Shown: positions 1 through 21,423 of the stretch, in pieces
How positions within the stretch are numbered: the stretch's first letter is position 1
Layout of the letters: each line of letters begins with the position of its first letter
Source of the DNA: Psammoneis japonica
Taxonomy: Eukaryota
Direction: 5' to 3'
DNA: 64,000 nt
Assembly: GCA_008632985.1 (NCBI GenBank)
Contig: QPGO01000060.1
Location: 1-64,000 of the forward strand
Translations under genes and position numbers: made by a program
The notes under the pieces: model-generated
The model's database searches: none
The model's input: only the letters and a program-made list of their open reading frames with translations
What the model was told of the DNA's origin: nothing

Positions 1-74
1 GAGACTCATCTGCATTTAGACAGCAGTAAGGAGTTGTTGTTTGAATTCTTGCCATTTGCCTTCAATTTCTGTCA
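1..74 (+). repeat. 3' end of the 5' LTR
   Basis: gagactcatctgcatttagacagcagtaag...ttctgtca aligns to 6820-6894 with a few substitutions and one indel. Confidence 0.92.
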
Positions 75-1022
75 GATTAACAGTCTTGCTCATTGTCAAC
101 CCATTGAGCAACCGCCATCGTCGTCGTTGATTTACCAACGACGCCACCTCAATTCTGCGTGGACCTCCGTGTGCACTCTACATACATCGGCAAGTCTGCG
201 CGCATTCAATGCCAGGGCATTGGCAGGAAGTTAACGTCACCGTCAAGTCTCCTTGCCGCTGGACATCTGGATTGATTGTGCTGCCTTTGATCGCTGAAGA
301 CACACATTCAACGGTCATGTCCAAGTCCATCCTTGATCCTCATCCCTTGACACACCTGTTCATCGGTTGACGGTCAAGAACCCTGCATGTTCAAGGATCT
401 TCGTCGCTGAAGACACACGCACACACACACATCTTCACGGCCAAGAACCTGCACCCACTCTTCGGACTGCGGTTTTGCTGCCACTCTGCAAGCACACCGA
501 GTCCATTGCACCTGATCTGCCCCGGACCACTGGTGCTCTGCAGTTCCACCAGGTCCACGAGGACGACTGTGAGAGCAAGCAACCGTGATCACAGCCTGTG
601 TTGGGGCGAGGGTGCTTTCCCGCGTTTGTTCGTTCGTCCACAGCGCCTGACGCCTGCGTCAACTGGCCAGCCTGATCGGGAAATCCAACCGACACAAAAT
701 GAGAATGGTTCGGGGGTCTTGTCCACCTCTGGTCAGCTTACCTGCAGGGGTTTACAACCCGCTACTCCGCTCGCAAGCAACCCAAAGCGCCACTGGCTGC
801 GGGTTCGGACGTGCCGGCACAACTCTACGGACCGGATAGGAAGTTTAGCACTTGACAACGAATGGGACAGCAAAGCCCGGCAACTTCTGATTTTAAGATA
901 GATCAAGATTTCAAGTCAAGTCCATTTCAAGTCAAGTCTATTCTCACCCAAGTTTCAAGTCTGCCTTCACTGCCTTCGCTTCCCAACAAGAATTGCTTGT
1001 CCTGACACCACTCTTGTCTACC

Positions 1023-4000
1023 ATGGTTCTCACTCGTCAGCAACAAACTGATGGTTTCAAGCATGTTGTTGGAACCATGCTTGCCCAAGGTGTTGGGAGC
1101 CCTCTTCGTTTGGCTTTGACCCAAGACGGCACGGACTCGCATCAAGAACTGTTCACGTTCATGCCGTCCCAGATCGATTCGCTTGAGTGCAACAACGGCA
1201 CTAATGTGATCCCTTTGCCCCGCGGTTATAAGAACATGTTGGCAGCTCCAATTGGTCTGCACATTGTCAAAGCACACGAAGGTCTTGACGTTGCCAATGA
1301 CTCCTCGTTGTTCACGCATGACGAGTTCCTTGCCTGCCGCCTCAGCCCCGACTGCATGTCTTCTGTGTCCGTCGGCAGCTCACCCCTTGCACCTCCGCAT
1401 GTCACCAACCCAACCAAGGCACGCGACCCGGTGCGAGACTTCAAGCGAGGCATCAAGCGTGACCCCACCGCTTTCACGGCTCTCAAATCCAACAAGCAGT
1501 GGCACACTTGGCACACCTCACTTGTGGCACAAGCCCGTGCCCAAGACGTCAAGTGCACCCTAGACTCGTCGTACAAACCGACCAGCCCCGAAAGACAAAC
1601 TGCTCTTTGCTGAACAGCAAAAGTGCATGTTCGCCGTCTTCGAATGCATTCTTCTCACCGACAAGGGCAAGGCTCTCATTCGCGAAAATGTGGGGTCTTC
1701 TGACGCCCAGACCGTCCACCGCGCCTTGTCTGAGCATGCGCTTGCCTCCACCCGCGCATCTGTCGAGTCCTCCACCTTGCTCACGTGCCTTGCCACCGCA
1801 CGTCTTGGTGATGGCACTTGGAAAGGTCCGACCCACGGGTTCATCCTTCATTGGCAAGATCAGTTGCGCAAGTGCGAGGCACTCATCCCCACCAGTGACC
1901 ACTTCTCTGAAGGACAGAAGCGCGTCATGCTTTGAGAATGCCGCACACCCTGTCGAGGAACTCCGTGCTGTCAAGAACCAAGCTGATCAGCATCGCACGC
2001 AGAGTGGCAAGAGCCTCACATGCGATCAACACTGTGGCTTGCTCCTCTCCGCGGCGGCTCAATGCGACAGCACGTTTCAACCCAAGACGACACCTCGAGC
2101 TCCCCGACGACTCCGAGGAACCGTCCGACGATGTGTTCTACGACATTGACAGCGACATTGACGTCCTTCAGGCCAATGCAGCCTGCGCCCGTGGTCCCAG
2201 CCTCGCCGGTGACCAATGGAAACGTCTCCCTCCCGACCACCAACGGATTTGGGATTCGTTGCCCCATTCCTCCAAGGCGATCATCCTTGAGCATTCTCGT
2301 CCGCCTCCCCGCAACCCGCGAGCCAGCAACCACCATGAGTCCATTACGGCCAACCTTCACGACCAACGCCTTGGGAGTGACGGTGATGTCAACTTGTCCA
2401 ACACGACTCCTGCTGACTCCGGTGACTCCGCTCCAAATGTGGACACCACTTCGGATGATCCCATCCTGGCGCACCTCACCAAGTGCAAGCCACTGCCACC
2501 CGGTGATCTGCAACGTCTGTTGTCCCCTAACCAAGCCCCCAATGCTAGTCGACCGGGGCCATCCACCGCTCCCTCTACCTCGCCAGCTTCTGCCGATGAC
2601 ATGGAACTTGACGGCCGCACTTGCCGCCGCATTAACAACCACAATGTCATTTGCTCTGCCTCTGCTCATCGCTCCACACGCACTGGCGCTCTAGTCGATC
2701 GTGGAGCCAACGGCGGCATTGCTGGCGACGACGTTCGCGTCATTGCACGCACCTCTCGCCAAGTCGACGTTCAAGGCATTGACGACCATCAATTGGTGGA
2801 CATCCCCATTGTCACCGCTGGTGCCGTCATTGAGACCCAGCGTGGTCCCGTCATCGCCATCCTCCATCAGTGCGCATGCACGGGGAAGGGCAAGACCATC
2901 CATTCCTGCGGCCAGCTCGAATGGCACAAACAGGATGTCAACGATCGCTCTGTCAAGGTGCCCAACGGCTTGCAACGCATTGCCACTCCTGATGGCCATG
3001 TAATCCCCATTGACATCAAGGCCGGCCTGCCTTGTGTTGCCATGCGACCTCACACTGACGCCGAATGGGACACCCTGCCCCATGTCATCCTCACCGGTGA
3101 TGACACATGGGATCCTTCCATCCTCGATCACTCTGTCACTGACGACGACCAGTGGTGAGACGCGATCTCTGACCTGCAGGACGATCCCACTGCCAACCTG
3201 TTTGATGAATGCGGCAACTACCGTCATCGTGTCGTTGTCAACGAGACCATCATGTCCACTTCCTTGTCTGCCGATCACGCGTCCGCCCTCGATGATCACC
3301 TCATTCCGAACGACGACGTGTTCTACGAGTGTCATCTACACGCGATTGACCCCAAGGACGACGACGTCCCACCCCCGGAGCGCACTGTACAGCCCAAGGA
3401 CCCGCCCTTCGAGTCTCTTCGGCCTTGCTTTGGCTTCCCACCTGCCGATGCGGTCCGTCGTACTTTTGACTGCACCATGCAGTGCGCCCGCATGCCCGCC
3501 GGCACACACCTCAGGAAGGCCTGCAAATCACCCAACCCCGCCCTTAATGTGCACCGCCGCAACGAGCCTGTCGCCACTGACACCGTTTGTGCCGACACCC
3601 CGGCCGTCGACTCTGGTTGCACCAGTGCCCAACTGTTTGTTGGCACCGAGTCTACCGTCACTGACGTCTACGGCACCAAGACGGACAAAGAGTTTGTCAA
3701 CACACTCGAGGATCAGATCCGTGAGCGTGGTGCCCCATCCAAACTCATTGGCGACCGTGCTCAAGTTGAGATCAGCAACAAAGTGCTCGGGATCCTACGG
3801 GCCCTCTTCATCTCCAGCTGGCAAAGTGAGCCTCACCAGCAACACCAAAACTTTGCCGAGCATCGACACCAGACCGTGAAGCGCATGGCGAACACTGTCA
3901 TGGATCGTTTTGGTTCGCCCGCCCACACATGGCTGCTGGCGCTCATGCATGTGTGCTTCATGCTCAACCATGCAGCGTCCCCACGTCTCCACTGGCACAC

Positions 4001-6671
4001 GCCCCTCGAGACTCTCACTGGCTCCACCCCGGACATCAGCCCATTGCTTCGCTTTCACTGGTGGGAACCCATGCACTTCCACCTCAATGACTCCGATTGG
4101 CCGTCCGAATCCCATGAGTTGCGTGGACGCTTTGTTGGCATTGCTGAGCACGTCGGCCACCAGATGACCTTCAAGATTCTCTCTGACGAGACTCAGAAGA
4201 TCCTCTGCCGGTCCAACGTACGCTCCGCTGCCACCGATCCTGCCGTTCGAAACCTGCGTCTTGATCCTCTTGATGGGGAGCCACCTGAACCCATCATAAA
4301 ATCTCGCCATGACGACAACCCCGTCGATTCTCCTGATGGGGAGATCAGGACACCCAAGATGCCAGTTTTCGATCCACAAGACATCATTGGACGTACCTTC
4401 CTCATGCAGCCACAAGAGGATGGACAACGCCACAGAGCTCGCATCGTCAAGGCCATCGAAGACCACGAATGGAAAGTGAACGGCAATCCCAAGCTCACTG
4501 AGTTCGTCTGCTCTGTCAACAACGACGAATACGAGGAAGTCCTTGCCTGCAATGACATCATGAATCACATTGAGCAAGAAGACGAAGACACTGCCATTTG
4601 GAAATTTCGACGCATCGTGTCACACGAAGGACCTCTGAAGCCTCACGACCCAACCTGGAAAGGCTCAAGCTGCAACATCATGCTTGAATGGGAAAGTGGG
4701 GAGATCACGTCCGAGCCTCTTGCCATCATGGCCAAGGACGACCCCGTCACCTGCACCATCTATGCACGAGAGAACGGACTCCTCGACACGGATGGCTGGA
4801 AGCGGTTCTGCACCATCGCGAGGCGCCAAAAGAAGCCATTTCGCATGGCCAACCAAGCCAAGCTTCGCTCCTTCTGCACTGCACCTCGCTGCAAGCACGG
4901 ATGCGAAGTTCCCCGGAACTGCAAACATGCCATGTCACCAGACGAACGCAACGGCAACCGCAAATGGGGAGATGCAACTAATCTCGAGATGGACCAACTC
5001 GACGAATACGAAGTCTTCCATGACTGCGGGCCCTTTGAGTCTTCCACTCCTCCTGCGGGACACAAGAAGATCCGAGTGCACCTGGTGTGCGACGTGAAAC
5101 ACGATGGTCGCCACAAGGCACGACTCGCAGCCGATGGGCACCTCACGGACGTACCCATCGACAGTGTCTGCTCCAGAGCAGTCTCCCTCCGTGGCCTTCG
5201 GCTGATGATTTTCTTGGCCGAACTCAACGAGTTGGAGACATGGGCCACCAACATTGGCAATGCCCACCTTGAAGCCACCACTGAGGAGAAGCTTTACATT
5301 GTAGCCGGGCCCGAATTTGGCAAACTCGAAGGACACATCCTTGTCATCCACAAGGCCCTGTGTGGACTGCGCAGCTCCGGTCTCCGCTGGCACGAGCGCT
5401 TCGCCGACTGCCTGCGAGCTGAAGGCTTCTTCCCCTGCCGCGCCGAACCCGACATTTGGATGCGCAGGAACGGCGACCACTGTGAATGCATTGCCGTTTA
5501 TGTGGATGACCTCGCCATTGCCATGAAGGACCCTCAATCTTTCGTCGACACTCTCACGGAAAAGTGCAAGTTCAAGCTCAAGGGTGCGGGACCCATTGAG
5601 TTCCATCTGGGTTGTGACTTTTCCCGGGATCCCGACGGAACCTTGTGCCTGTCTCCGCGCAAGTACATCGAGCGCATGGTCGACAGCTGCGCCCGACTGT
5701 TTGGGGAGAAACCTGCCACCAATGCCCTGTCACCTCTGGAGAAGGGTGACCACCCCGAACTGGACACTTCCGAACTGCTGGGACCCGATGGCATTCACAA
5801 GTTCCAGTCTCTTGTTGGTTCACTCCAATGGGCAGTGTCCCTTGGTCGAATTGACATTGCCACGGCCGTCATGTCACTCTCTAGCTTCCGAGCTGCGCCC
5901 CATCAAGGCCACTTGGATCATGCCAAACGCGTCTGTGGGTGCCTCTCCAAGATGCAACACGGTGCTCTCCGCGTTCGCACGGAAGAGCCCGATTGTTCGG
6001 ATCTCCCTGCTCCCGCCTGTGAATGGATGCATTCCGTGTGCGGCGAAGCAGAAGAGATGATCCTGAAGGATGCTCCACTGCCCCTTGGCAAGTTCGTCAC
6101 TGCCACCCACTGCGTCGATGCAAACTTGTGCCATTGCATGCTCACCGGACGCTCTGTCATGGGAATGCTCCACTTCCTCAACAAATTCCCGGCTGATTGG
6201 TTCTCTAAGAAGCAAGCCACCGTGGAGACTGCGACCTGCGGGTCTGAATTTGTTGCCGCAAGGACTTGTGTCGAGCAGATTGTTGACCTGCGCATCACCC
6301 TGCGCTGCCTTGGCATCCCGATCCATAATGTCAGTCACATGTTCGGTGACAACAAGTCGGTTGTAGACAGTGCCACCATCCCGCACTCCAAGTTACACAA
6401 GCAACACACCGCACCATCGTTCCACCATGTGCGTGAGGCAATTGCCTCTGGTCACCTTGAGTTCCACTTCATCGAAGGCTCCCGCAACCCTGCTGACATC
6501 CTCAGCAAGCATTGGGGTCACTCCCAAATCTGGGACCTTCTCCGCCCCCTCATGTTCTGGAACTTCATTTCATTCAAAGTCGAATCTGTTTCTGTGACTC
6601 CTCAAGCAAACTGGGGAGTGACAGGATTTGAACAGGATTTGGGTGCGCGCGAAATGTCGCGCGCTGTTTAG
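1023..6671 (+). pseudogene. copia gag-pol polyprotein, disrupted by frameshifts (~1610, ~1932) and an in-frame stop (3156-3158)
   Basis: Gag motif FKRGIKRDPTAF; protease ALVDRGANGG; integrase ATDTV...LIGDRAQ...SEPHQQHQNFAE; RT DVKHDGRHKARL, GLRSSGLRW, IAVYVDDL; RNase H VDANL, GSEFVAAR, MFGDNKSVV, NPADILSKHW. ORFs 1932..3158 and 3252..6671 are in the same frame. Confidence 0.93.
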
Positions 6672-6894
6672 CTTGCCGCGCACAGTTTTGTGTGCTTTAG
6701 TTCCGCGCGTTCGCGCGCGATGTAGTTTGCTTTCGAGCCACAAGGCTCACAAGAACAATGACAGTAGCCCGATTGTACCAACTTGCACGTCTTTCGGCTC
6801 CTGTGACGGTCTCTGAGTGGAGACTCATCTGCTGTTTAGACAGCAGTGAGGAGTCATTGTTTGAATTCTTGCCATTTGCCTTCATTTTCTGTCA
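6619..6894 (+). repeat. 3' LTR (276 bp) with TGACAG...CTGTCA terminal inverted repeat
   Basis: Starts tgacagg directly after the purine tract ggggag and ends ttctgtca. Its 3' end matches window bases 1-74. Confidence 0.92.
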
Positions 6895-9100
6895 TGCACA
6901 ACCATGAGTGTTGTTGCCGGGCTCTTAAAAAGTCACAACATTGACAATGTTTTTCCAACAGTCAAAGGAGTGCCCCCAGCACAGAGTGCAATTTGGCAGA
7001 TTCAAGTGAGTGCAAATTGAGGTTTTTGCTGAACCTCATTCAAGGATGTGCACTCAGGAGTGAGATCTCCATCAGTGATTTGTGGTTGAGAATGGGAGTG
7101 CAACACACACATTGCCTGCTCCAGTGACCCAAGTGAAGACCTGAACAGATGGAAGCACCGTTTAATTTTTCCTTCCAAGTCTTGTTCAGTTGAGAATGAC
7201 AAGACCAAGACCAGAGATCACCTTTGAAGGTGTTGAACAAACAACAAAGTGGCCTCATCAAGGGCATGTGTGTCATGCTCTCTGTCCAAGATAAGATCTG
7301 CCATGGTGGTGTCACCTTTGTGTCCCAAGTCAACAGACAATGGGGGTGGGGGACAGTTGGTGGCATCCCTTGTGCTTGCCCGAAGTGTTTCTGATTGCAT
7401 GGGTGGAGAGCCACGGCAACATCCTTAGAAGCATCAACGGTGATCCAATCCATGTGCTCTTTCAAGTGAATTGCCAGATTCCAAGAAACTTGAATGCTGT
7501 TGATGCCTGCACCTCATTGTGCTTTGCAACAAGCCACCCTTTGGAACAATTCAGTGGTTTCCTCTGCTTTGCAATGTTGTGAAGGATGGTGGCTTTCTTG
7601 CATGATGCTTTTGTTCCTTTGAGATCTAACTCTGCAATCTTGTCAGCCATTTTTTGTTTGCAATGCACAGTGCTCTCTGCTGTGACCTGCTCACATTCCT
7701 CCAAAGTCAATGGAGTCACAAAGAAGCCAGCGAGTTTAGAGAGTGTTTTTGTTGCATCTGAGCAACAGTGTGGTCCAAACGTGTGTGCATCATTGACAAA
7801 AAATGAGTGAGGGTGTAAACTCAGAGTGTGTCAAAGGTCAGCCAACTTGACAGACCGGTCAGGTTTGTGGTGCAAACAGCACTTTTTTGCAGCAGCTGAG
7901 GAAAATTGCAACAGGTCTCTGTCCAAGCATTTGGCCAACTCATGATCCGGGATGTCCAGCTCAAGAAGATGGGTTGATCTCTCTGACACTGTGCAGCTCT
8001 CCAGCACTGGGCCAATGACATTCAAGCAAGCTGTGACTTGTGGTTTGGAGGATGCTTGAACATCCTGAAAAGCTGCTCTGGGAAGGTCAACCATTGGGTC
8101 ACCAAACAGAAAGGCCTTGCATCCACCAAAGCCAGTGGCAGCCAAAGCACCAGGGGTGGCAAGAACACAGTCAAGTTGCTTGGAACCTCTGGTGCAGGTG
8201 GAAAAAGCTGCACCACCCATGAGGTGAAAGAGCACATGTGAAAGATTGCATTGTTGGGGCAAGAGCAGACAAGGAGTCTGCATCTGTGGCAAAATTGGTG
8301 TTGTCCTGGCTCTTCCTTCAGCTTCATTGACTTGAGCTTGTTCACACCAAACAGAGAGCCAAAACAGCAGATGAGCACAACTTGGTCATGACCAACTTGA
8401 AAACCACAGGCCCATGTGTTGGACTGTTGATGTGCTTTTGCATGTCACCATGCAAGGCAGCTCCAATTGAATTGAGAAAAAACTTGGCTCTGACCACAAC
8501 AATTTCTGTTGATTGCACTGGTTGCCATTCACAAGCAATTCTTGCATGTGATCCTGAATCCCTTGCAGGTCCAATGGGCTGCAATCCATCACAAGATTCA
8601 ACTCTTGAGGTGCCCAGTCATCACATCATTCATCTGGACATGGAATGCCAAGTCTGCACCACTCATGAGAAGATGCTTGCAAACAGAGTTGGCCCAACTG
8701 ATGAGAGTCACCTTGTTGTTCTTGTTGGTGTTGATTTTTGACTCCAAACCCTTGGTGCAACAAGACATGATCATCATTGAATGACTCCAAAATGATGGTC
8801 ATTGGCAGTGCAGACTGTGTGGCACAGCATTGATGTTGATGACTTTTGGACCACCAGTCCAAGCAATTGAAGAACAACCAACACAGTGGTTGTGCTTGAT
8901 TTGCCTCAAGAAGCCAAAGAGAAGCAACTTTGAGATCAACTTTCAGGCTCAATGCTGGAATTGTCTAATGTGTCATTCCCAAATGAGCCAGCTTCTGCAT
9001 TGCCAATGAGAGTGCCTCTTGATCCTGCTGAACAATCACTCATTTTGGAGGAAAATCAGAGGTTTTGCTTTGCATCAACTTGATGGACTCAATTCAAAGC
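6895..9100 (-). mobile_element. Decayed non-LTR retrotransposon (LINE) ORF fragment, interrupted by the copia element
   Basis: Minus-strand translations give GHSFDCWKNIVNVVTF*EPGN (next to the LTR), WKE...SGLHLGHW, NQKHFGQAQGMPPT and RGSKQLDCVLATPG. These resemble motifs I recognise from diatom LINE ORFs (RWxxIVNVMIxKEPGN, SPSGxHLGHYK, HFGQAQGTPFT, RGSxxIDYxL). The right boundary is approximate. Confidence 0.75.
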
Positions 9101-10040
9101 AATGATGACACTTGAGCTCACAACCATGGAAATGAGCTAAAATGGAGCAGCACAACAAGCTGAAGCAACAACAACTGTCTTGAGCTCAAAAAGCACCAGC
9201 AGCTGCTGCTTTCAAAAGCAATCCTGGTCCTCACAAATGTGAAAAATCCACAAGAAGTGAGAGAAGGATGGAGAAGGTCCCAAACGCACCCCCAAAAAAG
9301 TCAGCTGGAAAAAAGACAGTTTTCCATGCCATGTCCATGAAAGAAATGAAGGATGGACAATGACCAAGATGAAGCTGGTCATGGAGGACCAAAAAGGACC
9401 AAAATGACATGTCAGCAAACCTGATGGTCCATGAGTGGATGAGCAAGACCAAACCCTCACAAAATCTGATGGCAACATTGGCGTGCATCACAGATCACAA
9501 ACTCTCATCACTGGCAGAGGATGGCATTGTCACAGTGACCAAGGACATGGCAAAGGTGACGAGGCTGCTGGGAGGTGGCCTGTGTTGACTGACCTTTGCT
9601 GACCTGCACTCTGTGCTTGTTCATGCACATGATGAGTTTTTTGGCAATGTGCAAGGGAAAAAATCTGGCACTGAACTCTGGGCAGTGCAACAATCTTGCC
9701 AGGAATTGAGGCTGCTGTGACCCCACCTTGCAACAGCCGCAACTCTTCAGAGCAATCGACTCAGCAACACCACAAGACATGCAGCAGCAACCATGGGATG
9801 CACAAAAGGATTAAAGTACAAGAGGAAGAGCAATCATTGAGTTTCCACCATGCCAGAAAAGGAAGCTGGGGCCGAGAAGCATTGAAAGAACAATGGGTGT
9901 GCAGAAGTGACAACGAAAGGACTGCAGAGGTTTCTGCGCTGCAAAATCCACCATCAAATGCAAGCAGCAGATGCTCTGACACATCACTGCAAATGGCAAG
10001 CATCAGCACAGAACAGAAAACAAAACAGCATGTTGTAGTA
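9100..10040. repeat. Unclassified TpA/CpG-depleted decayed repeat sequence
   Basis: Same TG/CA-rich, TA/CG-poor composition as the adjacent LINE; no recognisable domain. Confidence 0.45.
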
Positions 10041-10087
10041 AAAGACATCCCTGCCCATTAAGTGCAAAAGTTACAAGGTCCTCAAAC

Positions 10088-13000
10088 TCAGCGAAGAATG
10101 TCCAAACCTCCCTCCTCGCGCGGAGATGTCCGAACAAATTCGATTTCTTTTTGCACCCATTCTAAAAGATCCCACTGTCTCTCTCCCATGTTCCATTTGA
10201 GTGACAAAAACAAAATGTCTTCAACATCATCTTCAACAAACCCTGCGAGAGATGGTTTCACCCTTTCTCCGTACAGGCGTTCAACTTGGGGAGCATTCAC
10301 CTTGTCACGAGCAACTCTGGGAAATTCATCAACAAAGCATATTGCTGAGGTTAGCATCAGGGCAACCTCATGCGATTCCTTTGTGACATCTATGCCAAAG
10401 TTAGTCTGATGGACAGCAGTCAACGCAAAATCTTTCCAGTCAAAGCTGTGCTGTTCACCGCGACAAAAGAGCACTGCGGTCTGTCCTTCTTGTGTGTGGG
10501 ATAGGTCCCGCACCACTACCAACTCCTTCACTTGTGGCAAAATTTCTCTCCATGTGCTTTCAATAACAGACGGGTCATACTCATCACCACCAAAATTGAT
10601 TGATTTCCTGCTGCGTCCAGCTATGGTCAGCTTATTCTCGGTAAAAAAGCCAACATCTCCAGTTTCATACCATCCCTCATCATCCAAAGGGGTATCGGTA
10701 CCGCTGTTAAGATATTCGATCATCATTTGGCTTGATCGGAGAATAATGCTTCCTAGTGTGGCGTTCACTTCTTTTCGCGAATTCGTGCCGGGGTTTTCGT
10801 CGAGCGGCTCTACTCGTACTTCAACACCGTCACACAGAGTAAGAGCATCAGCCTCGGTAACATCGCGGCTTCCGATAAGGTGCGCTTCACTCGATCCATA
10901 GGTTTCATATATCTTTACGTGTGTCCCGTCTTCGCGTGAAAAGGCAAGTATGGCTTCATCGATACATGCCGGTAGTAGCTTGGATCCAATAGTCAATATT
11001 GTCCGCATTGACTGCAACGTTAGTGTCAGGTCTTCTGGATCCATATTGCTTACTGCGTCTACAACTTTGTCTAGTTGATGAGGAGAAACAACTGCGGCTG
11101 TGGCATCATTTGCCAACAAATATTCAAGAAGCCCTTCTTTTTCGTCGTCTTCCTCCTCCTCATCTTCTTCTTCTTGGAACGACGAACGAAAAATGGTATC
11201 AAAGATTGGCATCACGCACGCACCGAAAATCAAAGATGGAACATACACGTTGTCAAGACCCGCAGAGTCATCCATGCCGAGAGGACAGACTATCTTTTCG
11301 CTAGGGTCGTGTGATAGTAACTTCTGGGAATTGGTAGCAGTGACAAATACAGCCTCATATGAGCTTGCAACAACCTTTGGCAACCCTGTCGATCCAGACG
11401 TGAACGTCAGAATCGCTTCCTTGCTAAGAGGGAACGTCTTCGGTGTGTAAGGCAGTGCTGATAAATACGACTTCCAAGGAATGTCTTCTTCGACCAGAAT
11501 CATATTCGGTACACCTGGCACGAAGTCCAACGCCAAAACTACTCGAGTCGTGTTGTGACTATTCATGACAGATGAATAGCTCTCACTGGTCAAGCCATCG
11601 AGCACTATAACTGCGGGGTCAATAATCTCGACTACCTCGGGGAACCGGGGGTGCCACATCTGTCGTGCAACATTTGCATACGTGAAAGCATTCTTGAAAC
11701 AGGCGAGCATGAGTACGTATACATCGTACTCGTATGTAGTTTCAGGGGTCACAGCGATCATCACTCTTCCATTTGACCTAGGTGGCATGTGATGACGGAT
11801 AATCGCAGCTGCACGGTCAGCGTCGGCGTGGAGCTGTGCGTGCGTTCGGACAGTATCTCTGTATTCCCCTGAGGACTTTCCAACAGATACCATTGCGGGG
11901 GAAACTGCGAAGTTCTTGTCTGGTGGGCCGTCCAAAATTACAGACGCAGCGTGGATTAAGGCTTGATGTGAAGCTGAAGCGGCTTGATTCGGTGTAACAT
12001 TCACTTTAGACGGTGTTCCCACGGATCCACCAATAATAACGTCTTGCTTCGTAATCAGGAACCGGACTACACGATTGCTCACTGAGACACCACCGGGCTG
12101 GATCAAGACGTGCAAAAAACAGAGAAAAACAGGCAACCACATGATGCTGCGAGTCGAGAAGTTCTTAAATTCTCCCGTGTTGTTGGAGATCGCGGCTCTT
12201 TCGCTACCAATCTTTTTCGACTTTAACACATCCATGATACCTGGCTTGTTCTGGCAGTCGCTCCCATTTAAATCTTTTAGGGCTGTCCTTGCTACTTTCA
12301 AATTCACAGGCTCTGCCCCAATGCCAGCCATATGAAACCCAGGCCCCATTGCTATGATGATGACGCTGCGGCTTTCCTCAGTTAATTCGTTCCACGCTTC
12401 TGATGCCATTCGTAAGACTGTGCTTGACGCCAAGTTCCCGCCATCTCTGAGGCTAGAACGCATCCGAGCTATAGATTTTTGAGAAATATCAACCGCGGTG
12501 TTCTTTTCCATAGCATCAACCATCTTGGATCCGCCTGGATGAATGACATGCGACACTGTGGTCATTGGTGCAGCCCCCATAGGAGACACAGAAGACCTCT
12601 CGCTTGTTTTGGCAGTAAGGTCCGCAGCAAATCCAGGCACGTGCTTCTCAACAACGTCACAGAGCTCTTTTGTAGTGACAAAGTGATATCCCATTTGGTC
12701 GTAGTCAAAGTAGGAGACATGAGTCACGTGAGGGACACACTCTTGTTTTCCCGCAAGCACACGAAGCCCGCAAGCTCCTTCATTCCCATGGACGGAGTGA
12801 ATGCTATCTCTCACGGAATGTCCGCCCCGCATCACGCAAGCAGAGGCACAATCGCCGAATAGAGCAGAATTGAGGAACACACTCATACCTTGCTTGTGGG
12901 GCCGGAAACCAAGGGAGCAGAACTCCAAAGAGAGGATGAGTACGTTCTGAGTAGGGTTTCCCAGCAGCAAAGTTAATGCCATATCTAGGGCCACCGCACT

Positions 13001-14224
13001 CGCAGCGCAACCCGCTTGTGTCACCATCGGCTTGCAGGTCTTCTTGAATGGCACAAGGTGCGTCAAGTAGTGATACAGATTTGGAAATGGATACGGCTGA
13101 TGTGTTGACACAATCACGTAGTCAATATCTTCAGCCGTCAACGCGGCCTCTTCGAGAGCTTTGGCGATAAGCCCATCGTCACCACACAGCTCACGCTGCG
13201 CAAGCTTGATGAATATATCGCGCTGCAACTGGGGAGTGATCTTCTGCGAAAGCTCTGGGAGGCCGTCAACAATAAGCTGATCACCTACTTTGAAAGGGGG
13301 GTTTTCCAAGGGAACAAGAAGAACGCCACTTTCAACAGAGGCGTGCTCGCCAGGCAGGACAAGCTCTTCGTTGTACTTTCCCGTAACTTTTTTCCAACTT
13401 TCATCGTGCAGAAGCACAGGAGGCTCAACTTTATTGTCGACCGATACGTTACCTGCCGAAGGCTCGTTTTTTTCTGTACGGAACAAAAGTGGGTGCACTT
13501 GCGCATCCATTCCTACCTTGATGGAGTTTTCAACATGCGGTTTGTGCTGGTGTGTCGAAGAACTGCTTGGTGATTCCTTGGATCCTCGTTCTTTGATTTC
13601 CCGCGACGCGTCTAACGCGTCAAAGCTGTTTGATCTCCCCACCGGTTCGACGACTCCTTCATCACGGTCACCAGTTGTTGGTTGAACTACTGTGAATCCA
13701 ACCCGACCAGTCAAGTTGATATCTTTTACGATGGCTTCCAACTTTCCCATCTCCCCCGAGTCTCCCAGCTCAAGTTCGACCAAGCTGATGCCGCCTGGTT
13801 CGCTAGTGAAGATGTTTGAACATTTCATGTAAAGCCCAAAGGCCGGACGCACAATGTGCCGCTTTTCAACTCCCATGGTATTGAAAATGATATGAGACGC
13901 TTGCTTCAGTGCCCCCTCAGGGTCATTTTGATAGTTTCGGAGGATGTGTGGAAGCTTAGTTTGGATTGCCAGTGCAAAATCCTTGTTAGAAACCACATGT
14001 TCCGGGAGCCAGACCGAGGGCTTGAACAAGACCGGGTCTTTCCAACAATCGTGTTCGTCAGACGCCTGCCTTGCGGCACTGTCTCTGTCGAAGTCTTCTG
14101 ATTTAGAGCCGTGGTCGTGAGTCTCAGCCTCGGGTTTGAAGGTTTTTTCCCTGAAGGTGGTTGACCGTCTGTTTTCCACTTGCGCTTCCGCCCCAAGGAC
14201 GTCTTTCCCGAAAAGCTTCTTCAT
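10088..14224 (-). CDS. Type III polyketide synthase (RppA/chalcone synthase-like) fused to a C-terminal ANL adenylation (acyl-CoA ligase-like) domain, ~1378 aa
   Basis: Uninterrupted ORF, probable start MKKLFG at 14224 (ORF open to 14584). PKS triad: AGCAAS (Cys ~13008), IHPGG (His ~12540), GGNLASS (Asn ~12435); also LEFCSL, ALFGDCASA, MGPGF. ANL motifs: FTSGSTGLPK, YETYGSSEA, WYETGDVG, IAGR, FPRVARDKV. Confidence 0.92.
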   Translation of the reverse strand: MKKLFGKDVLGAEAQVENRRSTTFREKTFKPEAETHDHGSKSEDFDRDSAARQASDEHDCWKDPVLFKPSVWLPEHVVSNKDFALAIQTKLPHILRNYQNDPEGALKQASHIIFNTMGVEKRHIVRPAFGLYMKCSNIFTSEPGGISLVELELGDSGEMGKLEAIVKDINLTGRVGFTVVQPTTGDRDEGVVEPVGRSNSFDALDASREIKERGSKESPSSSSTHQHKPHVENSIKVGMDAQVHPLLFRTEKNEPSAGNVSVDNKVEPPVLLHDESWKKVTGKYNEELVLPGEHASVESGVLLVPLENPPFKVGDQLIVDGLPELSQKITPQLQRDIFIKLAQRELCGDDGLIAKALEEAALTAEDIDYVIVSTHQPYPFPNLYHYLTHLVPFKKTCKPMVTQAGCAASAVALDMALTLLLGNPTQNVLILSLEFCSLGFRPHKQGMSVFLNSALFGDCASACVMRGGHSVRDSIHSVHGNEGACGLRVLAGKQECVPHVTHVSYFDYDQMGYHFVTTKELCDVVEKHVPGFAADLTAKTSERSSVSPMGAAPMTTVSHVIHPGGSKMVDAMEKNTAVDISQKSIARMRSSLRDGGNLASSTVLRMASEAWNELTEESRSVIIIAMGPGFHMAGIGAEPVNLKVARTALKDLNGSDCQNKPGIMDVLKSKKIGSERAAISNNTGEFKNFSTRSIMWLPVFLCFLHVLIQPGGVSVSNRVVRFLITKQDVIIGGSVGTPSKVNVTPNQAASASHQALIHAASVILDGPPDKNFAVSPAMVSVGKSSGEYRDTVRTHAQLHADADRAAAIIRHHMPPRSNGRVMIAVTPETTYEYDVYVLMLACFKNAFTYANVARQMWHPRFPEVVEIIDPAVIVLDGLTSESYSSVMNSHNTTRVVLALDFVPGVPNMILVEEDIPWKSYLSALPYTPKTFPLSKEAILTFTSGSTGLPKVVASSYEAVFVTATNSQKLLSHDPSEKIVCPLGMDDSAGLDNVYVPSLIFGACVMPIFDTIFRSSFQEEEDEEEEDDEKEGLLEYLLANDATAAVVSPHQLDKVVDAVSNMDPEDLTLTLQSMRTILTIGSKLLPACIDEAILAFSREDGTHVKIYETYGSSEAHLIGSRDVTEADALTLCDGVEVRVEPLDENPGTNSRKEVNATLGSIILRSSQMMIEYLNSGTDTPLDDEGWYETGDVGFFTENKLTIAGRSRKSINFGGDEYDPSVIESTWREILPQVKELVVVRDLSHTQEGQTAVLFCRGEQHSFDWKDFALTAVHQTNFGIDVTKESHEVALMLTSAICFVDEFPRVARDKVNAPQVERLYGERVKPSLAGFVEDDVEDILFLSLKWNMGERQWDLLEWVQKEIEFVRTSPREEGGLDILR

Positions 14225-15111
14225 GGAAGGCGTGCGAGAGAATGGGAGAGTCCACGAGTTTGTGAAATGAGGTCGCGATAAAAGAAATCTCGATGGAACC
14301 TGCAGGGAGTAAATGGTGGTGCAGTTGCAGACAATGTGTGTGAGTGATCGACGCGCAAGTGGAACAAACCAAGGCTCTCCCTCGAGACACAAGAGAGAAT
14401 ATGTCTGATGTTTGCCTTGTTTGGTGACATACCAGTACTGGTTGCTTTGAGCTGCACTGCTAAAACGAACGAATGAAATTTGGGAGAGGAAATAATTTTC
14501 AACGCGTGAATCTCCGAGTGCTTCCCGCCAAAACGAAAACGCATCCAGCCATGTTGACGAGATGGCACAGCTTTCAGCTTTCATGCCATCCGGCCGTTAT
14601 TAAATAAATAAAAACTGTATCGAGAATAAAGGACCTCTATCTTTTAAGTGGAGAGGGCCCAACTGACTCTATAATACAGCACATACTGCATAAATGTACA
14701 TTAGGTGCTGTGTTACTTACAGTAGGCCGCACTTGGGGAAACTTTCACACATACACTTCTCTATGCAATTATATGTATTCGTGTTCGAATAAAATAAAAA
14801 TTGGTGCGAAAATTTCACACATTTTTCGGCACGTGGCCTGATGATGCGTCAAAATTGGCTTTTGCTGACTCATAATAGAGTTGAAACACAATTTGATTGG
14901 CTGAAAATACAGCGCATGGGAACTGAACAACGGTCCACACAGCTTTTTCACTTCCTTGTTTTGCAAACTGTTTGTTGCGCAGAATTTCGCAATTAGAAAA
15001 ACCTGGACAACAGTGCAGCATTGCAAAAACCAGTGATGCACAGCAAGTGGACAGACTCCCAGCAACACTGAATTCACGTTCCCCATGATGACAACACTGT
15101 GCTGCCATCCA

Positions 15112-16340
15112 ATGAAATGGATGAGAAAGAAAGAGCCAACTGTTCCTTGCAGTTGTTCCACAAACTGAGACTCCTCCTGTTGCTGTTTGCGTTCTTTCTG
15201 GGTTGTCAAGGCATGATGACATCCTCACCTGCCATCTTTCCCCAGTCTCCGTCGGTCCAGGCAAAGAAAGAAAACAGCACTTCCACTCCCACTCGACTCT
15301 TGGTGGCCACCATTGTGGGAACCTCCAAGTTAGAAATGGCCCTGCACATTGAAGAATCCTGGCGGCAGTTCTTGGGTCCAAATGATGCACTTTGGACCGT
15401 TTGCGATGTTGGTTGTTCCAACATCGCAGGCAGCTCCGTGGTCGAAATGGATCCGGAATTAATCCATTCCGTTCGTCCAAACTTTGAAGAAAAAAACTGG
15501 GGATGCCAATTGGCACAACTCAAGTTTTGTCATGCCTTGATTTTGCAAGTGCAAGAATTTGCAAAAGACAGCAAACTGTCTCAGTGGACATTTGTCAAAG
15601 ATGACGACAACCATTTCCGTGCCGATCGATTGATGCAATTGGCGCAGAGGGAGTGGACTTTGCCAAGGAAAAAGCAAGTCTGGCAGGAGGGTGGCTTGGA
15701 CAAAGCACAGAAAGACAACATCCACCGGGGGATCATCTCTGTGGCCCTCCCAAAGGCTGTGGTTGGCCCTCGGGAGGTGCCGGATGGTTGGTCAGTCAAG
15801 CCATGGCACTGGAGTTGGCCACCCACCTGCAAGACCAAGTTTTTGATTTTATGTGACACAAACTGGAACAGTCCAAATGGGCCTTTCACTTTGACATGTG
15901 GCTTCCGGTTGTTGCCAATTGGGGTGGTGGGAAACTTCGCCATTCTCCTGCTTTGGTGCACTTGCAGCCGGGACAAACAACCTGTTTTGACCCGGGTGCG
16001 AATGCCACCTCCTTTGTTGCCCTGCACATCATGAAAGACTTTGTCAATGCACATGGTGGCACAGAAGAGGCTTTGAGGAGGATTGAAGACTGCATGTGGC
16101 TGCCCTTTGTGCCACCCATGGAATCACTGTGGGATTGGATGGCACAAACCAAAGGGCAAAATGCATCCATCGAGCATTGTGGGACTTCTTAACAAAAAAG
16201 AAAAACAAACCTCCATTCAACATTTCTCCCCTGACTTTTTTCATTGGTTGGCAAAAAAATTAGATGCTCATTCTTTGTCCCAAATGTTGCATCATGACAA
16301 AGTGGTTGCTCTAAGAGCTGCATCCAGGAAAGAGTTTTGA
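15112..16340 (+). pseudogene. Decayed Fringe/GT31-like glycosyltransferase gene
   Basis: N-terminal hydrophobic anchor (LRLLLLLFAFFLG) and WTFVKDDDNHF, resembling the WxxxxDDDxY motif of GT31/Fringe enzymes. The frame breaks after ~15650. The sequence is TA-depleted and the long ORF contains no Tyr. Confidence 0.5.
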
Positions 16341-17131
16341 GGGAGGTGCAGACAATGTGATCAGCCAAACAACACGTGCAAAAGCTGCCTGTGGCTCAGA
16401 ATTGCCACAAGGAGTCTAGCCAGCTAGTTGGCAAAGGGATGCAGTGCACATGAAAGCCAAGTCAAAGGCAAGAACATTGGAAGATGATGTTGGCAGCTCT
16501 CAGTTCTCAATCTCTGTTGCTTGCAAAGTGAGAGCCCTGGCAGCCCAGCTGGATTGAAATTTGAAACTGACGTCATTGGTGTCAAAAATCCAGTGCTTCA
16601 TGACATTTGCTCGGTTGCCACAACAAGAGCACAAGAAAACCAACAAGACTGAGTGAGTTGCTGTCTGTCTTGCATGACCCTTTGTAAAGTGAAGCTGATG
16701 ATTCTGATGACTCCCAGTGGCTTGTCAACCTTGTCACTTTGCCGTCATCAACTCTGGATGTGCAGCAATTGTTGTTTCTCAGTCAAGAACAAAAAATGTT
16801 CAAACCTTGTGATGACCAGATGGACCCTGCAGACCAGCAGCGCTGTGCAGCTGAGGCTGAAAGTGTCATGATTCTCATGGTGACTATGCTGCTGATGCCA
16901 AGGCCCTGGAAAATTCCAGCCAAACCCTTGTGTGCAGCTTAGAATTCCTTGCCGAGGCTGCCAATTCCCACTTTGGAAGACACGTGTTGCCACTTCCTTC
17001 CCACCACACTTGCCATGGCCGAAAATGATCCACAAGCAAAAAGGAGTCTCAAGGAGGCCAAATTTCCAGTTTTGCCTGAGGAAAAAAACCGGCAGACTGG
17101 CCAGCCAGCAGACACTCTGCTGGAGTGCTCA

Positions 17132-17351
17132 GAGCCAAGAGGGCAGGCCCAGCACAAGGAGAGGATGCCTTGTGGGTGGCTGAGCTCTTGGAGGAGTCAC
17201 CGTGCGACAGTGGCACGCAGCAGAAGGCAGGCAGACAGATGTGCGGACAACAACGAGAGGCCACCCCAGTTTCCCTCATTGTGTTTGGTGGACTGCCAGT
17301 GATGATGGGATCAGTTGCGTCAACCCAATGTGGGCCGACAATGCTGAAAAT
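17132..17351 (+). repeat. Split direct repeat A1
   Basis: gagccaag...cccagcacaaggagagga...gctgagctcttggaggagtcac...cccagtttccctcattg...gggccgacaa...ctgaaaat recurs at 25473-25708. Confidence 0.88.
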
Positions 17352-18620
17352 GTTGCTTCTGCCAAGTGGCATGCCTTGCACAATTGCCCACAAGCTGCAC
17401 ATGGTGCCAGTTGATCCATGGATTGGCTTGACCATCTTCAGAGCCTGCAAAACCATGATGAATCAGCCATCAACTTGAATCCGGTAATGTCCTGCAAGCC
17501 AAGTTGATTGTGCATGATGCCTGCATTGCTCTTGTTGCTTCTGAGTTGTTCTGTCAGAGTGCGAACAATGCAGTTTGGTGTTTTGTGTTGGCAGGTTGGG
17601 ATTGCTCCCATTGCCACAAATGCCCCTTTGATCATGTTGGATCCAGATGGTTTTCTGCAAGCCAACTGATCAGGATTGAATTGTGATCCACCTCGTTTTG
17701 TCTGATCTCACATCAGAATGTGAGTGCATTGTCCATGCATCCCATTGCTTTCCAAGCATGTCAACCTTCCGTTGATTGGCTGCTCTGCATCTGCCTTCTT
17801 TTCTCTCAATTGTGCTGAATCCGGACAACATCTACAAGCCGGTTAATCTGGATCACTGCCCTGATCCACCTCGTTTCATCTGATTTCAACCTCAGAACAT
17901 GAGCACATTGTCAATGCAGCCCAACATTGTTCAGGTCCACTGCCCTGCAATTGTCAGGTTGCTCTAAAAATTGGCCTCTGTGCCATGATTCTCTCTCCTT
18001 CCTTCACCCGCCATTGCAGTCACCAGATCTCACATCCATCTCATGTGTGTTCATGAACAGACTACATTCTGACCATTGCAATGGTTCCACATGAATCACT
18101 TTTGTGCTGTGACATGTTCTGAACACATTCTGTGTCAGAGTGTTCAAGCAAGGATGCTCCCCCACAAACATCTCAACAAAACCACTGATGCACAAAATCT
18201 GACACAAATTTGTGCACATTTTCAAACATGCCCCTCTGATCCAGGAATTTCTGCAAATGTTTGATTCCTGATGCACCTGGCAGATCATCTGTGCATTCTA
18301 TGGTGTTTGCATGAAAAATCGTGACCACAACTTTTGGAGATTTCAAATCTCTTGGGACAGACCTTTGGCTTCCCTCCATTTTCTTTCTGTTGGTCAAAAT
18401 TTCGACCTGCTCCACGTTGCTCTTGGTCTTGCAGTGCCTTGCAATTCTGATTCTGATTGTGTGAAGCAACTCCCTCTGAATTGCTCCGGTTTTCTGGTGC
18501 AATTTGTGCAGCATTCTACACCAAACTTTCCATCCAAAAACTTCATTTCTCTCCCACAAAACTTTGGTTTTGCCTTTTTGCACTTACCTTTCAAGCCTTC
18601 TCTTTGTCTCCCATCTTGCC

Positions 18621-20880
18621 ATGGCTGCCAACATTCTTGCTGCTGTTGAGCATGGCAAGAAAGCTTCTCCCATCAAGCGCTGTTCCCAGTCGGGAACACA
18701 GACCGAGTTTGCTCCTAAGCAGTCCAAGCTGGTCCTTCACTGTGACATCAACGGTGCTCTTGCCAACCATGTCTGCGGTCAATTTGATCAATTCTTGATG
18801 TTCTGCAAAGGCTGCATCATCCCTGTTCCTTTCATCAACAGTGGGAACCAAGTCAAGTTCTTGTCAAACTCTTCCGATGATGTCAGAGAAGTTGTCCCCA
18901 TGTTGGGCACTCACCAATGTTTCCAAGGACACTTTGTGACTCCAACCCCAATCCCAACCCTTGTGCATTGTGCTGACATTGTTGTGTTCAACCTGCCTTG
19001 AGCTGAGACTCCTCCAGATGATGTTGAAGGTCCACTTCTAACGGACGGCAATCAAGATGCGGCACCTTTCAAATGTCTCCATTTCAGTGACCCCACTGCT
19101 CAGGATGATCAACCTGTCATTGCTGCTCCTCCGATGGCATTCCCTGCACCTCCAGGCTGTTCCCACCCATTGGATTTTATTCCTGGAGGAAACTGCCCTA
19201 CAATGGCGGCCAATTTTCCTGCACTTGACATGTGGCAGAAAGGCATCACTCACATCCAGCAGCATGATGCCAGCTGCTCTCTCAAGGAAGGCAGACCTCT
19301 TTTTGACCAAGCTGTGGATGGTCTCCAAGTTGTTGATGACTATGTTGGTTTTAACATCTGCAACTTCTGCAACAATGATTTTCAGGCAGTTGCACCTTTC
19401 TCGGACAACTGCCGTCATGTCCAAACTGCCATCAAGACATTTTTGGATGCAACCTGGCAGGTGCCAGGTGCCACAATTCCAGTGGGCCAATGGGCCAATC
19501 CCGGAAATGGTGCCCAAGCTCACGGAGCCACCACTCACACTCCCCTTGCTGTCCAAGTCAAGGCCCCTGAATCCAAGAAGAACAAGGACCTCAAGAAGAG
19601 GGCTGGTGACATTCATGCCCATTTTTTGCTCATGTTCAGTCACAAGGTGGTTGAATCTGACACTGTTGCACTTCGAGAGCTCCAACAAGTTTTTGTTGAA
19701 GCCCTCCAAGAGTCTGGTGACACTGAATGGGCTCGCCTTGTCAACAAGATTGTTGCTGCGGCCATTGATGGTGTCAAGTCTGTGGACATCTTTGACCAAG
19801 CAGTGGCTCTTTGTCCTGCTTGCATCAACAAGGCTTTCACAGACGGAATCCATTGTTTCAAGTTTGTGGGTCAACCACTGAACACATCTGTCACTGCCTT
19901 TTTATCAAAGATCAACCTTCTGAACTTCCTCACCCCCCATGTGGACACCTCAGAATGCATCAAGATTGCCAAGGAAGGTCAGGAGCACAGCAGCCATTCT
20001 GTGAATGCTGACTCTAAGACCACAACTGCTGAGTCAATCAAGAAGTCAACCCCACACACTCATGGCCATGCTCAAGATTCCTTGGATGTTGTTGCAGCCT
20101 TGAGCAACTTCAGGCTTGCGTTCAGTGCTCTCATTGAGAATTTCGATGATGATTTTGTCTGGCAACAGCCAAATTGTTGCTGTGCGGTTGCTTTTGGTGA
20201 GATTGGAAAGCAATGGATCACGAGTGATTGAAATTCTCACAAGATTGCCGCCAATGTGCTCAATGACATTCAAACCATCATTTGCACCTTTGCTCAGCTT
20301 GGAAGCATCCCTCAGTGCCGCGAGGTGATTTGCACATCCCAAGATGTCAGTGTCAGGGCTCTGGATGTCTCTGAGCATCTCACAAACCAATCCATTCAGG
20401 ATTTGGAGGCCAACATTGGTCATGGTCCTCCCAGAACCTTTGGGAGCAAGTGTGCACTCTGCCAGCTTGCCAAGAAATCCAACACTGCTCCTGCGACTGC
20501 CAAACGTGCACTGGACTCTCCTGCTTCAATCACGTCTCTGGCCAAGAAGCCAAAGTTGCCTCCAACTTTGACGGCAGACGAAATTGAAGTCTGCAAGAAG
20601 CTGGGAATGCTTGTTGTCTCTGGCAACCCTCGTCAGCCCCCTGTTGTCCCTGTTTTGGCAAAGAAGGGACCCGACTCCAACACCAAGGAATGTTTGTTTT
20701 CCTTCTTCTTGATTCGTGGGTTTGGCTGCAACCATTCCAAGTGCAAGAAGCCTCATGTGGCAAACTTGCGCAGCCTTCCGGAGTCAAAGCACAAGGAGTT
20801 GATTGACTTTGTTGAGAAGTCCAATGCTCTTTCCTTTGCTGAAGGAAAGGGCCCCAGTGGTGCATCTTCTTTGTTTTGTC
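18621..20880 (+). pseudogene. ORF1 (gag-like) of the YR retrotransposon, fragmented
   Basis: Consecutive long + ORF pieces (18504..19001, 19134..20231, 20256..) upstream of RT, ending in a Cys/His cluster (C...CNHSKCKKPH). Assignment is mainly positional. Confidence 0.5.
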
Positions 20881-21423
20881 ATCTGATGAACTGGGGCACT
20901 TGGTTTTTGATGTGCATCAGTGACTTGCATGTTTTCTTTGACCTTGCACCACCAGCAAAGATCATGGACTCCAGAGCTGCACACACAGGTGGCACACCCA
21001 ATGCCTTTTCTTCTGCCAGTGCTGATGCATTCATGGAGGATGACATCATCCTTCCTCTTGCGGTTGGCAATCTCAAAAATGCTTCTGCATCCCTGGGGCT
21101 GGCAGCTCAGGATGTCACTGATGCAGCTCCAGTTTTTGTCTGACAACGTTGAGGAGTTTTGCCCTGTTTTACCCCCAATGACAACATCAGGGCATTGTCC
21201 CGCCCCTGTTCCAACCATCAATGACTCTGTGAAAAAGGCTGAACGAAAAGCATTTGTTTGCAGCCATCTCTCTGACCATGTTCGGTCTCAGCTGGAAAAT
21301 CCATTTGGCAAGGATTGCATTCATCAACTGTTTGCTTCAGAGGCCACTTGTGTTGCTGCCAATTTGGAAGTCTGGTTTCTTGTCTTCTAGTGCCACTGGA
21401 GAGAGCTTGTCTGCATCCAAGGG

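Follow-up and report, generated by a model that had tools for sequence, protein, structure and literature searches.

How does a retrotransposon polyprotein come to lose most of its conserved tyrosines while its reading frame stays largely open? The question is raised by a copia-type long terminal repeat (LTR) retrotransposon at the start of a 64,000-nucleotide stretch of DNA (positions 1 to 64,000 of contig QPGO01000060.1, assembly GCA_008632985.1, listed under Psammoneis japonica), hereafter the window. An earlier note, made from the letters of this DNA, had claimed that between positions 2860 and 6530 the conserved tyrosines of the copia Pol protein are systematically replaced by Cys or His while CpG is intact, and that the underlying loss of TpA is uncoupled from CpG decay and precedes it. 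Comparison with homologous proteins, with other copies of the element and with the rest of the window shows that TpA has been converted to TpG or CpA, on both strands, in the mobile DNA of the window. The best overall explanation, which we consider probable, is that A:T pairs at TpA were changed to G:C after integration, most likely by enzymatic deamination of adenine.

The Pol frame (frame 1 of 1911-6671) encodes a copia-type polyprotein, the translation of which contains all 14 peptide strings that had been listed in support of the claim, as well as the strings LAADGH and APSFH. Residues 480-1560 are 58-69% identical, at 89-100% coverage, to the 120 proteins listed of 1,400 found in the database. 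Measured against 120 Pol homologs, the protein is poor in Tyr (0.63%; homolog mean 3.86%, minimum 2.86%) and rich in both Cys (3.22%; mean 0.95%, maximum 1.46%) and His (5.30%; mean 3.54%, maximum 4.62%). An alignment of the query with its 60 best homologs, in which a column was counted as conserved at a consensus of at least 70%, contains 41 conserved Tyr columns; the query retains Tyr in 8 of them and carries Cys in 18, His in 8, Phe in 4 and another residue in 3. All of these Cys codons are TGY and all of the His codons are CAY, and the systematic replacement of TAY by TGY or CAY is thereby established for 26 of the 41 columns, at which the homologs have Tyr; other copies of the element have TA at places where this copy has TG or CA (see below). 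The altered columns include 10 that are invariant among the homologs (eight at 60/60 and two at 49/49), and the consensus residue is retained in 682 of the 776 non-Tyr columns (Fisher p = 1.5e-21 versus the Tyr columns). Among the 530 columns with a conservation of 90% or more, 57 carry a replacement: TA to TG (17) or TA to CA (9), CpG to CpA (12) or CpG to TpG (4), a different single-base change (8) or a change of several bases (7). The comparison with relatives that the note had called for thus came out in its favour: the relatives keep Tyr, and the replacements are concentrated at TA rather than spread evenly. Two changes outside Tyr codons that it had tentatively assigned to the same process, Val to Ala in LAADGH (GCA, position 5127) and Leu to Pro in APSFH (CCA, position 6414), lie in columns at least 90% conserved and fit GTA to GCA and CTA to CCA, respectively. 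The dependence on a preceding T is evident at second codon positions, where A was changed to G in 18 of 41 cases after T, in about 5 of 69 after A, in none of 54 after C and in 2 of 102 after G.

The dinucleotide composition of 2860-6530 tells the same story at the level of DNA, with 27 TA (observed/expected ratio, o/e, 0.16), 247 CG (0.85), 301 TG (1.62) and 342 CA (1.28). Recounting 4621-5220, where the note had estimated about 4 TA and 44 CG, gave exactly these figures. The uncoupling of TpA loss from CpG decay holds when the two are compared within one gene: about 76% of the TA at conserved Tyr codons has been lost (26 of 34), whereas of about 52 CGN Arg codons just 6 (about 11%) are gone. 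The description of CpG as intact is overstated: CpG is largely preserved (o/e 0.85), but 16 of the 57 replacements fit CpG to TpG or CpA, and in 10 of 40 positions compared with other copies of the element (see below) CG has likewise become TG or CA. The opposite combination is represented by the only true relative among two loci recovered in a scan of metagenomes, a 2352-nt contig (L001) carrying a copia relative at 47% identity, in which CG is depleted (o/e 0.24) and TA is normal (0.60). TpA loss and CpG decay are separable. The simplest reading would be a fast, targeted process acting on TpA and slow, ordinary decay of methylated CpG; the proposed order, with TpA loss coming first, is an inference that agrees with these figures.

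Across the window, three compositional states can be distinguished. In the host genes, which make up the rest of the window, TA o/e is 0.54, CG 0.97 and TG 1.17; in the copia element (1-6894) the values are 0.19, 0.85 and 1.42; and in four erased blocks totalling about 21 kb they are 0.06, 0.21 and 1.76. These blocks, delimited by composition, appear to be older relics and lie at 6895-9999 (TA and CG nearly erased; 8001-9000 contains a single TA and no CG), 14800-25799, 39500-44399 (with internal repeats) and 53800-56299. Relative to host DNA, they have lost 89% of TA and 78% of CG. Composition shifts within 100-200 bp at the borders; for instance, 14600-14799 contains 24 TA and the erased block starts at about 14800. 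Within the window, the TpA process is confined to mobile-element DNA and leaves host genes lying a few hundred bases from it unaffected.

The direction of change and the strands involved can be read from other copies. Contigs of four sequencing runs of one sample, which is possibly the source of the assembly, were placed on the window at a likeness of at least 80%. In one run (X1), 13,918 contigs fall on the element, and the summed depth there is 56,000-199,000 versus 60-160 on the adjoining low-copy DNA, although a sum of depths is not a copy number. The element belongs to a very abundant family of copia-type LTR retrotransposons, of which it is a dead copy. Places at which the family offers an alternative letter are dominated by transitions (409 versus 47 transversions), distributed evenly over A>G (108), T>C (112), C>T (95) and G>A (94). 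Among 40 of the 464 rows with alternative letters, 16 have TA in other copies and TG (9) or CA (7) in the window, the share of the alternative ranging from 0.13 to 0.89; 2 show the reverse direction, with TA in the window and TG or CA in other copies; 10 have CG in other copies and TG or CA in the window; 1 has CG in the window and TG in others; and 11 are other changes. At conserved Tyr codons TA is, to judge from both distant homologs and the family itself, the ancestral state. The two LTR ends of the copy provide a complementary view: the 1-74 and 6820-6894 repeats, 92% alike over 75 columns, differ at TAAGG/TGAGG and at TTGTTG/TCATTG, the latter being a TG versus CA difference explained by an ancestral TA that was hit on opposite strands in the two LTRs. 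Four repeat pairs within erased blocks are similar in this respect, as 33 of their 87 adjacent double mismatches set CA against TG. Since both outcomes occur and the LTR ends differ, the change is TpA to TpG or CpA on both strands, at the level of DNA. The LTR differences, small as the sample is, suggest that the process targeted integrated double-stranded DNA and not an RNA genome, and the changes would accordingly postdate integration.

The proposed sequence of events would be as follows. After integration, the DNA of the element would be struck by a process turning A:T to G:C almost solely at TpA. As TpA is self-complementary, a hit on one strand would give TpG and a hit on the opposite strand CpA, and in frame a Tyr codon (TAY) would become Cys (TGY) or His (CAY). 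Conversion of TpA to TpG or CpA cannot create a stop codon, and the frame therefore stays open. The loss of CpG in older relics would represent the ordinary decay expected of methylated CpG. The most likely chemistry would be that an enzyme deaminates adenine in silenced foreign DNA and the resulting hypoxanthine is read as G; the deaminase would need a T before the A and, according to the pattern described below, a pyrimidine after it. The identity of the enzyme as an adenine deaminase, the existence of a targeting signal and a role in defence are suggested by this scheme.

The change could instead have been introduced before integration, by an ADAR- or ADAT-like enzyme converting A to I at UpA in the RNA of the element, followed by fixation through reverse transcription. 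Such enzymes usually prefer a U on the 5′ side of their target A, according to the discussion in a 2026 preprint on the chlorarachniophyte Bigelowiella natans (doi 10.64898/2026.01.13.699255), and the sense-strand A>G class is indeed the larger one at Tyr codons (18 of 26). RNA editing would leave one-strand changes and two LTRs alike, and this is not the pattern found here: sense-strand T to C accounts for 8 of the 26 Tyr changes (versus 18 A to G, a small sample) and for 9 of the 26 TA-type replacements, counts over the family are symmetric, and the LTR ends of a single copy differ at TA-derived sites. Moreover, low-copy relics and local duplicates carry similar CA/TG differences, and in B. 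natans a single-copy, transcriptionally silent insert is described as mutating during clonal growth. We therefore regard RNA editing as improbable.

More information on the process comes from the bases that flank the few surviving TA. A total of 76 TA remain in 20.6 kb of the erased blocks, in the contexts TTAA (16), CTAA (20), GTAA (13), ATAA (7), CTAC (10), CTAG (5), ATAG (4), GTAC (1), ATAC (0) and ATAT (0); the corresponding counts in 34 kb of host DNA are 38, 115, 176, 166, 180, 51, 138, 94, 177 and 94. An additive model, in which the rate of hitting the A of each strand is set by its 3′ neighbour, was fitted solely on TTAA, CTAG and GTAC, the three palindromes of which some copies survive, and gives rates of 0.18 for a 3′ A, 0.91 for G and 2.02 for C, with T higher still. 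It predicts 23.4 CTAA, 11.8 GTAA and 5.8 CTAC, where 20, 13 and 10 were observed. The surviving sites fit a preference of TAY > TAG >> TAA, and a TAY motif may be proposed for the process.

The same preference bears on the ratio of Cys to His, which the earlier note had put at roughly 2:1 and taken as a hint of strand asymmetry. The ratio was reproduced (18:8), but on the Cys:His counts alone the asymmetry is not significant (p = 0.076). Split by the base before the Tyr codon, it is 10:2 after C, 5:4 after a purine and 3:2 after T. The sense-strand A in TAY always has a 3′ pyrimidine, and a 3′-base preference of the target A would predict the Cys excess in C-preceded codons; transcription thus need not be invoked for the 2:1 ratio. 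The symmetry at the family level (A>G 108 versus T>C 112; G>A 94 versus C>T 95) agrees with this account. A runs test of the order of Cys and His outcomes, done by hand, found 12 runs where about 12 are expected, that is, no strand-coordinated clusters. The strand asymmetry is weak and may be an effect of context.

Neighbouring bases also bear on error-prone repair, in which T:G mismatches arising from deaminated 5-methyl-CpG would be processed by long-patch synthesis with a Pol-eta-like polymerase that miscopies T in WA motifs. WA is the hotspot of Pol eta; the losses of TA and CpG share the same blocks, and this mechanism would account for TA loss with CpG preserved in a young element. Yet a WA target includes AA, with o/e values of 1.08 (element), 1.23 (erased blocks) and 1.15 (host DNA), and none of AA, GA and CA is depleted. 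At the protein level, Lys has become Arg in just 4 of 43 columns, compared with Tyr to Cys in 18 of 41, and the metagenomic relative L001 combines a CpG o/e of 0.24 with a normal TA o/e of 0.60. Error-prone repair accordingly seems a poor candidate.

A third alternative would place the lesion on the other base of the pair: a TET/JBP-type oxidase would act on the T of TpA, and mispairing of its product (5-hydroxymethyl- or 5-formyl-uracil) with G would yield T to C. Known thymine hypermodifications favour TpA, and the palindromic outcome would be identical. The window provides no evidence for such an enzyme, and no mutational footprint of this kind was found in our literature search; we consider thymine modification very unlikely.

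Two explanations would do without any mutational process, and we give next to no credence to either. The first holds that the composition is native to the family, with selection against UpA (and, in the relics, CpG) in RNA and with Cys and His tolerated in place of Tyr. Avoidance of UpA and CpG is common in RNA viruses. Against this stand the altered Tyr columns that are invariant among homologs, the two frame breaks and the stop of this copy, the other copies that retain TA at the same sites and the fact that none of the 120 homologs is low in Tyr (minimum 2.86%). The second is a sequencing or assembly artefact, such as modified bases miscalled in long reads, given that base calling at methylated sites can yield the transition product in error. 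Run X1 includes an 8038-nt contig (depth 60, de Bruijn assembly) that reproduces 6895-10100 with 7 other letters and 23 small gaps. The gaps could be taken in favour of an artefact, but the contig carries the erased block, and a base-calling artefact is therefore unlikely, although the sample is the same and the contig is not independent evidence. Furthermore, TG and CA outcomes in the element alternate within 6 bp (TGC at 4890, CAC at 4896), which is not expected of strand-coverage artefacts, and the relics are degraded in other ways too. The gaps, which include a 21-nt insertion after 7159, reflect either a second haplotype or indel errors of the assembly. Two further candidates were set aside by argument, biased gene conversion, as it is not TpA-specific and would not lower CpG, and ultraviolet TA photoproducts, as they would not be confined to mobile DNA.

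Several points weigh against post-integration change of A:T to G:C at TpA as we describe it. The baseline taken as normal consists of host genes, which are not the ancestors of the relics. Outside conserved codons, the ancestral state rests on 40 of the 464 rows; the LTR pair offers only 74 bp, and the timing after integration rests on few sites. A single sample, possibly the one from which the assembly was made, supplied all runs, and the evidence is that of a single 64-kb window, with the enzyme and the genome-wide extent lying outside its view. With regard to context, a preference at the -2 position fits as well as one at +1 by the symmetry of the model. The Tyr codons tip the balance towards +1, but they are few, and the T-preceded ones (3:2) fit it poorly. 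Finally, Arg has become His or Gln in 6 cases and Cys or Trp in none, so that purine changes, when pooled, are 24 of 32 (p = 0.007), and some residual effect of strand may exist.

The fate of an older target is illustrated by a degraded open reading frame (ORF) at 19002-21140 (+) in the second erased block, a relic of a family of proteins of about 770 aa (160 library matches, best E = 4e-50). Its Tyr content is 0.14% versus 1.99% in 39 homologs, and its Arg content 1.96% versus 5.43%; at conserved columns it retains none of five Tyr and two of five Arg, with His, Cys and other residues as replacements. It was identified by full-library search alone: Pfam returned nothing at E <= 0.01 for 67 ORFs of at least 110 aa from erased blocks, nor at E <= 0.001 for those of at least 200 aa, and the 770-aa family itself has no Pfam family except for a C-terminal CCCH zinc finger in one member. 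The ORF, with 713 aa, is the first in a series of successive degraded ORFs at 19002-24094 (+) and is probably ORF1 of an unclassified mobile element. One of its database homologs (P0133) has 0.53% Tyr and 3.68% Cys, with Cys at three and Phe at two of the five conserved Tyr columns, and retains 6 of 7 conserved Arg; judging from this composition, it may be another TpA-hypermutated copy from elsewhere. Inside another erased block, 42197-42433 is a tandem array in which units of about 73 bp, 91% alike, differ at CA/CG sites.

The copia-type copy lies on the forward strand. The window opens with the 3′ end of the 5′ LTR (1-74), a direct repeat of 6820-6894, the remainder of which lies beyond the window start. 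The gag-pol region was delimited by tblastn with three homologs as probes (1020-6590, with coding matches at 1023-6593) and is interrupted by frame breaks near 1589-1603 and 1931; contigs of the family are one base shorter than the window at 1591 and at 1932/1933. The sole in-frame stop of the Pol frame is a TGA at 3156-3158, in a column where homologs have Phe (18) or Tyr (15). The RVT_2 reverse-transcriptase domain (PF07727, E = 4.4e-23) occupies 5052-5687, corresponding to residues 1048-1259 of the Pol translation (P0001). A putative polypurine tract, GGGGAG (6613-6618), assigned by its position, directly precedes the 3′ LTR (6619-6894; 276 bp), which begins with TGACAG and ends with CTGTCA, that is, with six-base inverted ends, its end being set by the repeat at 1-74. 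Summed contig depth in the bins 1-337 and 6404-7077 is about twice that of the interior. Near-full-length Pol homologs among those listed are about 1,850-1,950 aa long, and full-length alignment to these polyproteins of about 1,900 aa, with RVT_2 inside a gag-pol flanked by LTRs, identifies the element as Ty1/copia; the Pfam scan of Pol recovered no integrase family at E = 0.01, and the domain order is thus not directly displayed. The loss of TA removes TAA and TAG and leaves long spurious ORFs on both strands and in several frames of 1-7000 and of the erased blocks; one of them, a 274-aa ORF on the minus strand of the element (3795-4619), exemplifies the trap for gene callers.

Host genes in the window are long uninterrupted ORFs. 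The first, at 10088-14596 (-), is an intact ORF of 1,502 aa in which type III polyketide synthase domains (Chal_sti_synt_N/C) are fused to an AMP-binding enzyme domain; its composition is normal, and blocks erased of TA and CG flank it on both sides. Others encode a protein with four helicase-associated (HA) domains (51982-53718, -) and an SNF2 helicase that carries a CW-type zinc finger (SNF2/zf-CW; 59691-61361, +). The best named relatives of the SNF2 gene are an MMETSP transcriptome labelled 'Asterio...' (48%) and Conticribra weissflogii (40%), from which the host is most likely a diatom.

What these observations add can be judged from the literature. Our search found no report of TpA-erasing hypermutation in diatoms, the passages of three diatom papers available to us do not mention it, and the sole report of hypermutation of A:T pairs in foreign DNA of a eukaryote in the literature searched is the 2026 preprint on one chlorarachniophyte, the accessible text of which contains no occurrence of 'diatom', 'stramenopile' or 'CpG'. 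The new points are the near-saturated loss of TA, the fit to a TAY > TAG >> TAA context and the separability of TA loss from CpG decay. We put forward tentatively, as a serious possibility rather than a probability, that diatoms have an active, targeted DNA adenine-editing defence which erases TpA, with a preference for TAY, from silenced mobile DNA independently of CpG methylation, and which they share with chlorarachniophytes. If so, this would be an ancient genome-immunity mechanism of algae of the stramenopile-alveolate-rhizarian (SAR) clade and nature's equivalent of the adenine base editors used in laboratories, and divergence-based dating of diatom LTR elements would be systematically biased. 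The footprint in a probable diatom, close to saturation and on a family represented by thousands of contig fragments, argues for a wide occurrence of the mechanism among major marine phytoplankton. The abundant natural substrates offer a system for working out the targeting, the sequence motif and the link to methylation, and a cellular enzyme that edits A at TpA in double-stranded genomic DNA would be of interest to base-editing research. For annotation there are two practical consequences: by removing TAA and TAG, TpA erasure creates false ORFs in all frames, and by inflating transitions it distorts the ages of diatom elements wherever a uniform substitution rate is assumed.

Among known systems, fungal repeat-induced point mutation (RIP) resembles the process described here in being a dinucleotide-specific transition hypermutation that inactivates mobile DNA and spares neighbouring genes, but it runs in the opposite direction: RIP makes TpA from CpA, whereas here TpA is destroyed. 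The RIP indices reflect this, TpA/ApT being 0.19 in the element and 0.07 in the blocks, compared with at least 0.89 under RIP, and (CpA+TpG)/(ApC+GpT) being 1.38 and 1.97, compared with at most 1.03 (PMC7884421). APOBEC (C to U on cDNA) and ADAR (A to I on double-stranded RNA) likewise leave deamination-type hypermutation in integrated animal retroelements; as far as the sections available to us describe it, this occurs before integration and on one strand (PMC4866542), unlike the changes on both strands and the differing LTR ends found here, and the TpA context differs from the motifs of APOBEC or ADAR. Methylation of CpG in diatom transposable elements is in line with the loss of CpG to TpG and CpA in the relics but leaves the loss of TpA unexplained; the part of that study available to us reports no RIP-like mutation in diatoms and describes the RID-related DNMT4 as being of unknown function (Hoguin et al. 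2023, PMC9998398). The element itself resembles the diatom CoDi elements, in so far as they are described in the accessible part of Maumus et al. (2009, PMC2806351), in its copia-type reverse transcriptase (RVT_2), probable diatom host and short LTRs with inverted ends, a likeness drawn from the description.

The closest parallel is B. natans. In mutation-accumulation lines of this alga, the mutation rate of two integrated viral regions exceeds that of the remaining genome about 1000-fold, in some lines only, and amounts to about 1e-7 per site and generation; of the 231 mutations in the inserts, 230 are A to G or T to C, all 230 of them at TpA; TpA-poor, CpA+TpG-rich 1-kb windows cluster in the genome; and low-TpA coding sequences are enriched in reverse-transcriptase and DDE domains, according to the available text (doi 10.64898/2026.01.13.699255). 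The authors propose, as a hypothesis, a DNA adenine deaminase and name an ADAT2 homolog (ADAT2/TadA-like; Mettrop et al., bioRxiv 2026). As in those giant-virus and virophage inserts, the change described here is a near-exclusive A to G or T to C transition restricted to TpA, which yields TpG or CpA depending on the strand: 26 of the 57 replacements are TA to TG or CA, and the 16 CpG transitions represent a second process. As there, it affects mobile DNA and spares host genes (TA o/e 0.54 versus 0.19 and 0.06). The relic blocks also have the composition by which such regions are recognised in B. natans (TA 0.06, TG/CA 1.76), while the copia element, at TA 0.19 and TG/CA 1.42, falls slightly below the second cut-off. 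The differences concern the host, a rhizarian there and most likely a stramenopile here; the target, which is a retrotransposon family (13,918 contigs) together with old relics; and the depth of depletion (o/e 0.16 and 0.06 versus a Rho of 0.45 reported for a viral insert). Here TpA loss co-occurs with CpG decay, yet is separable from it, and there is a flanking-base pattern, with TTAA spared and ATAT, ATAC and GTAC erased, a preference that the supplement of the preprint may already record. The B. natans data include a measured rate; those presented here consist of the footprint in the DNA. Collectively, on the evidence of its sequence the window displays every sequence-level feature of the B. 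natans system, and would represent this hypermutation process, for which there is one earlier description (2026), in a much more saturated form and in a second, distant lineage of algae.

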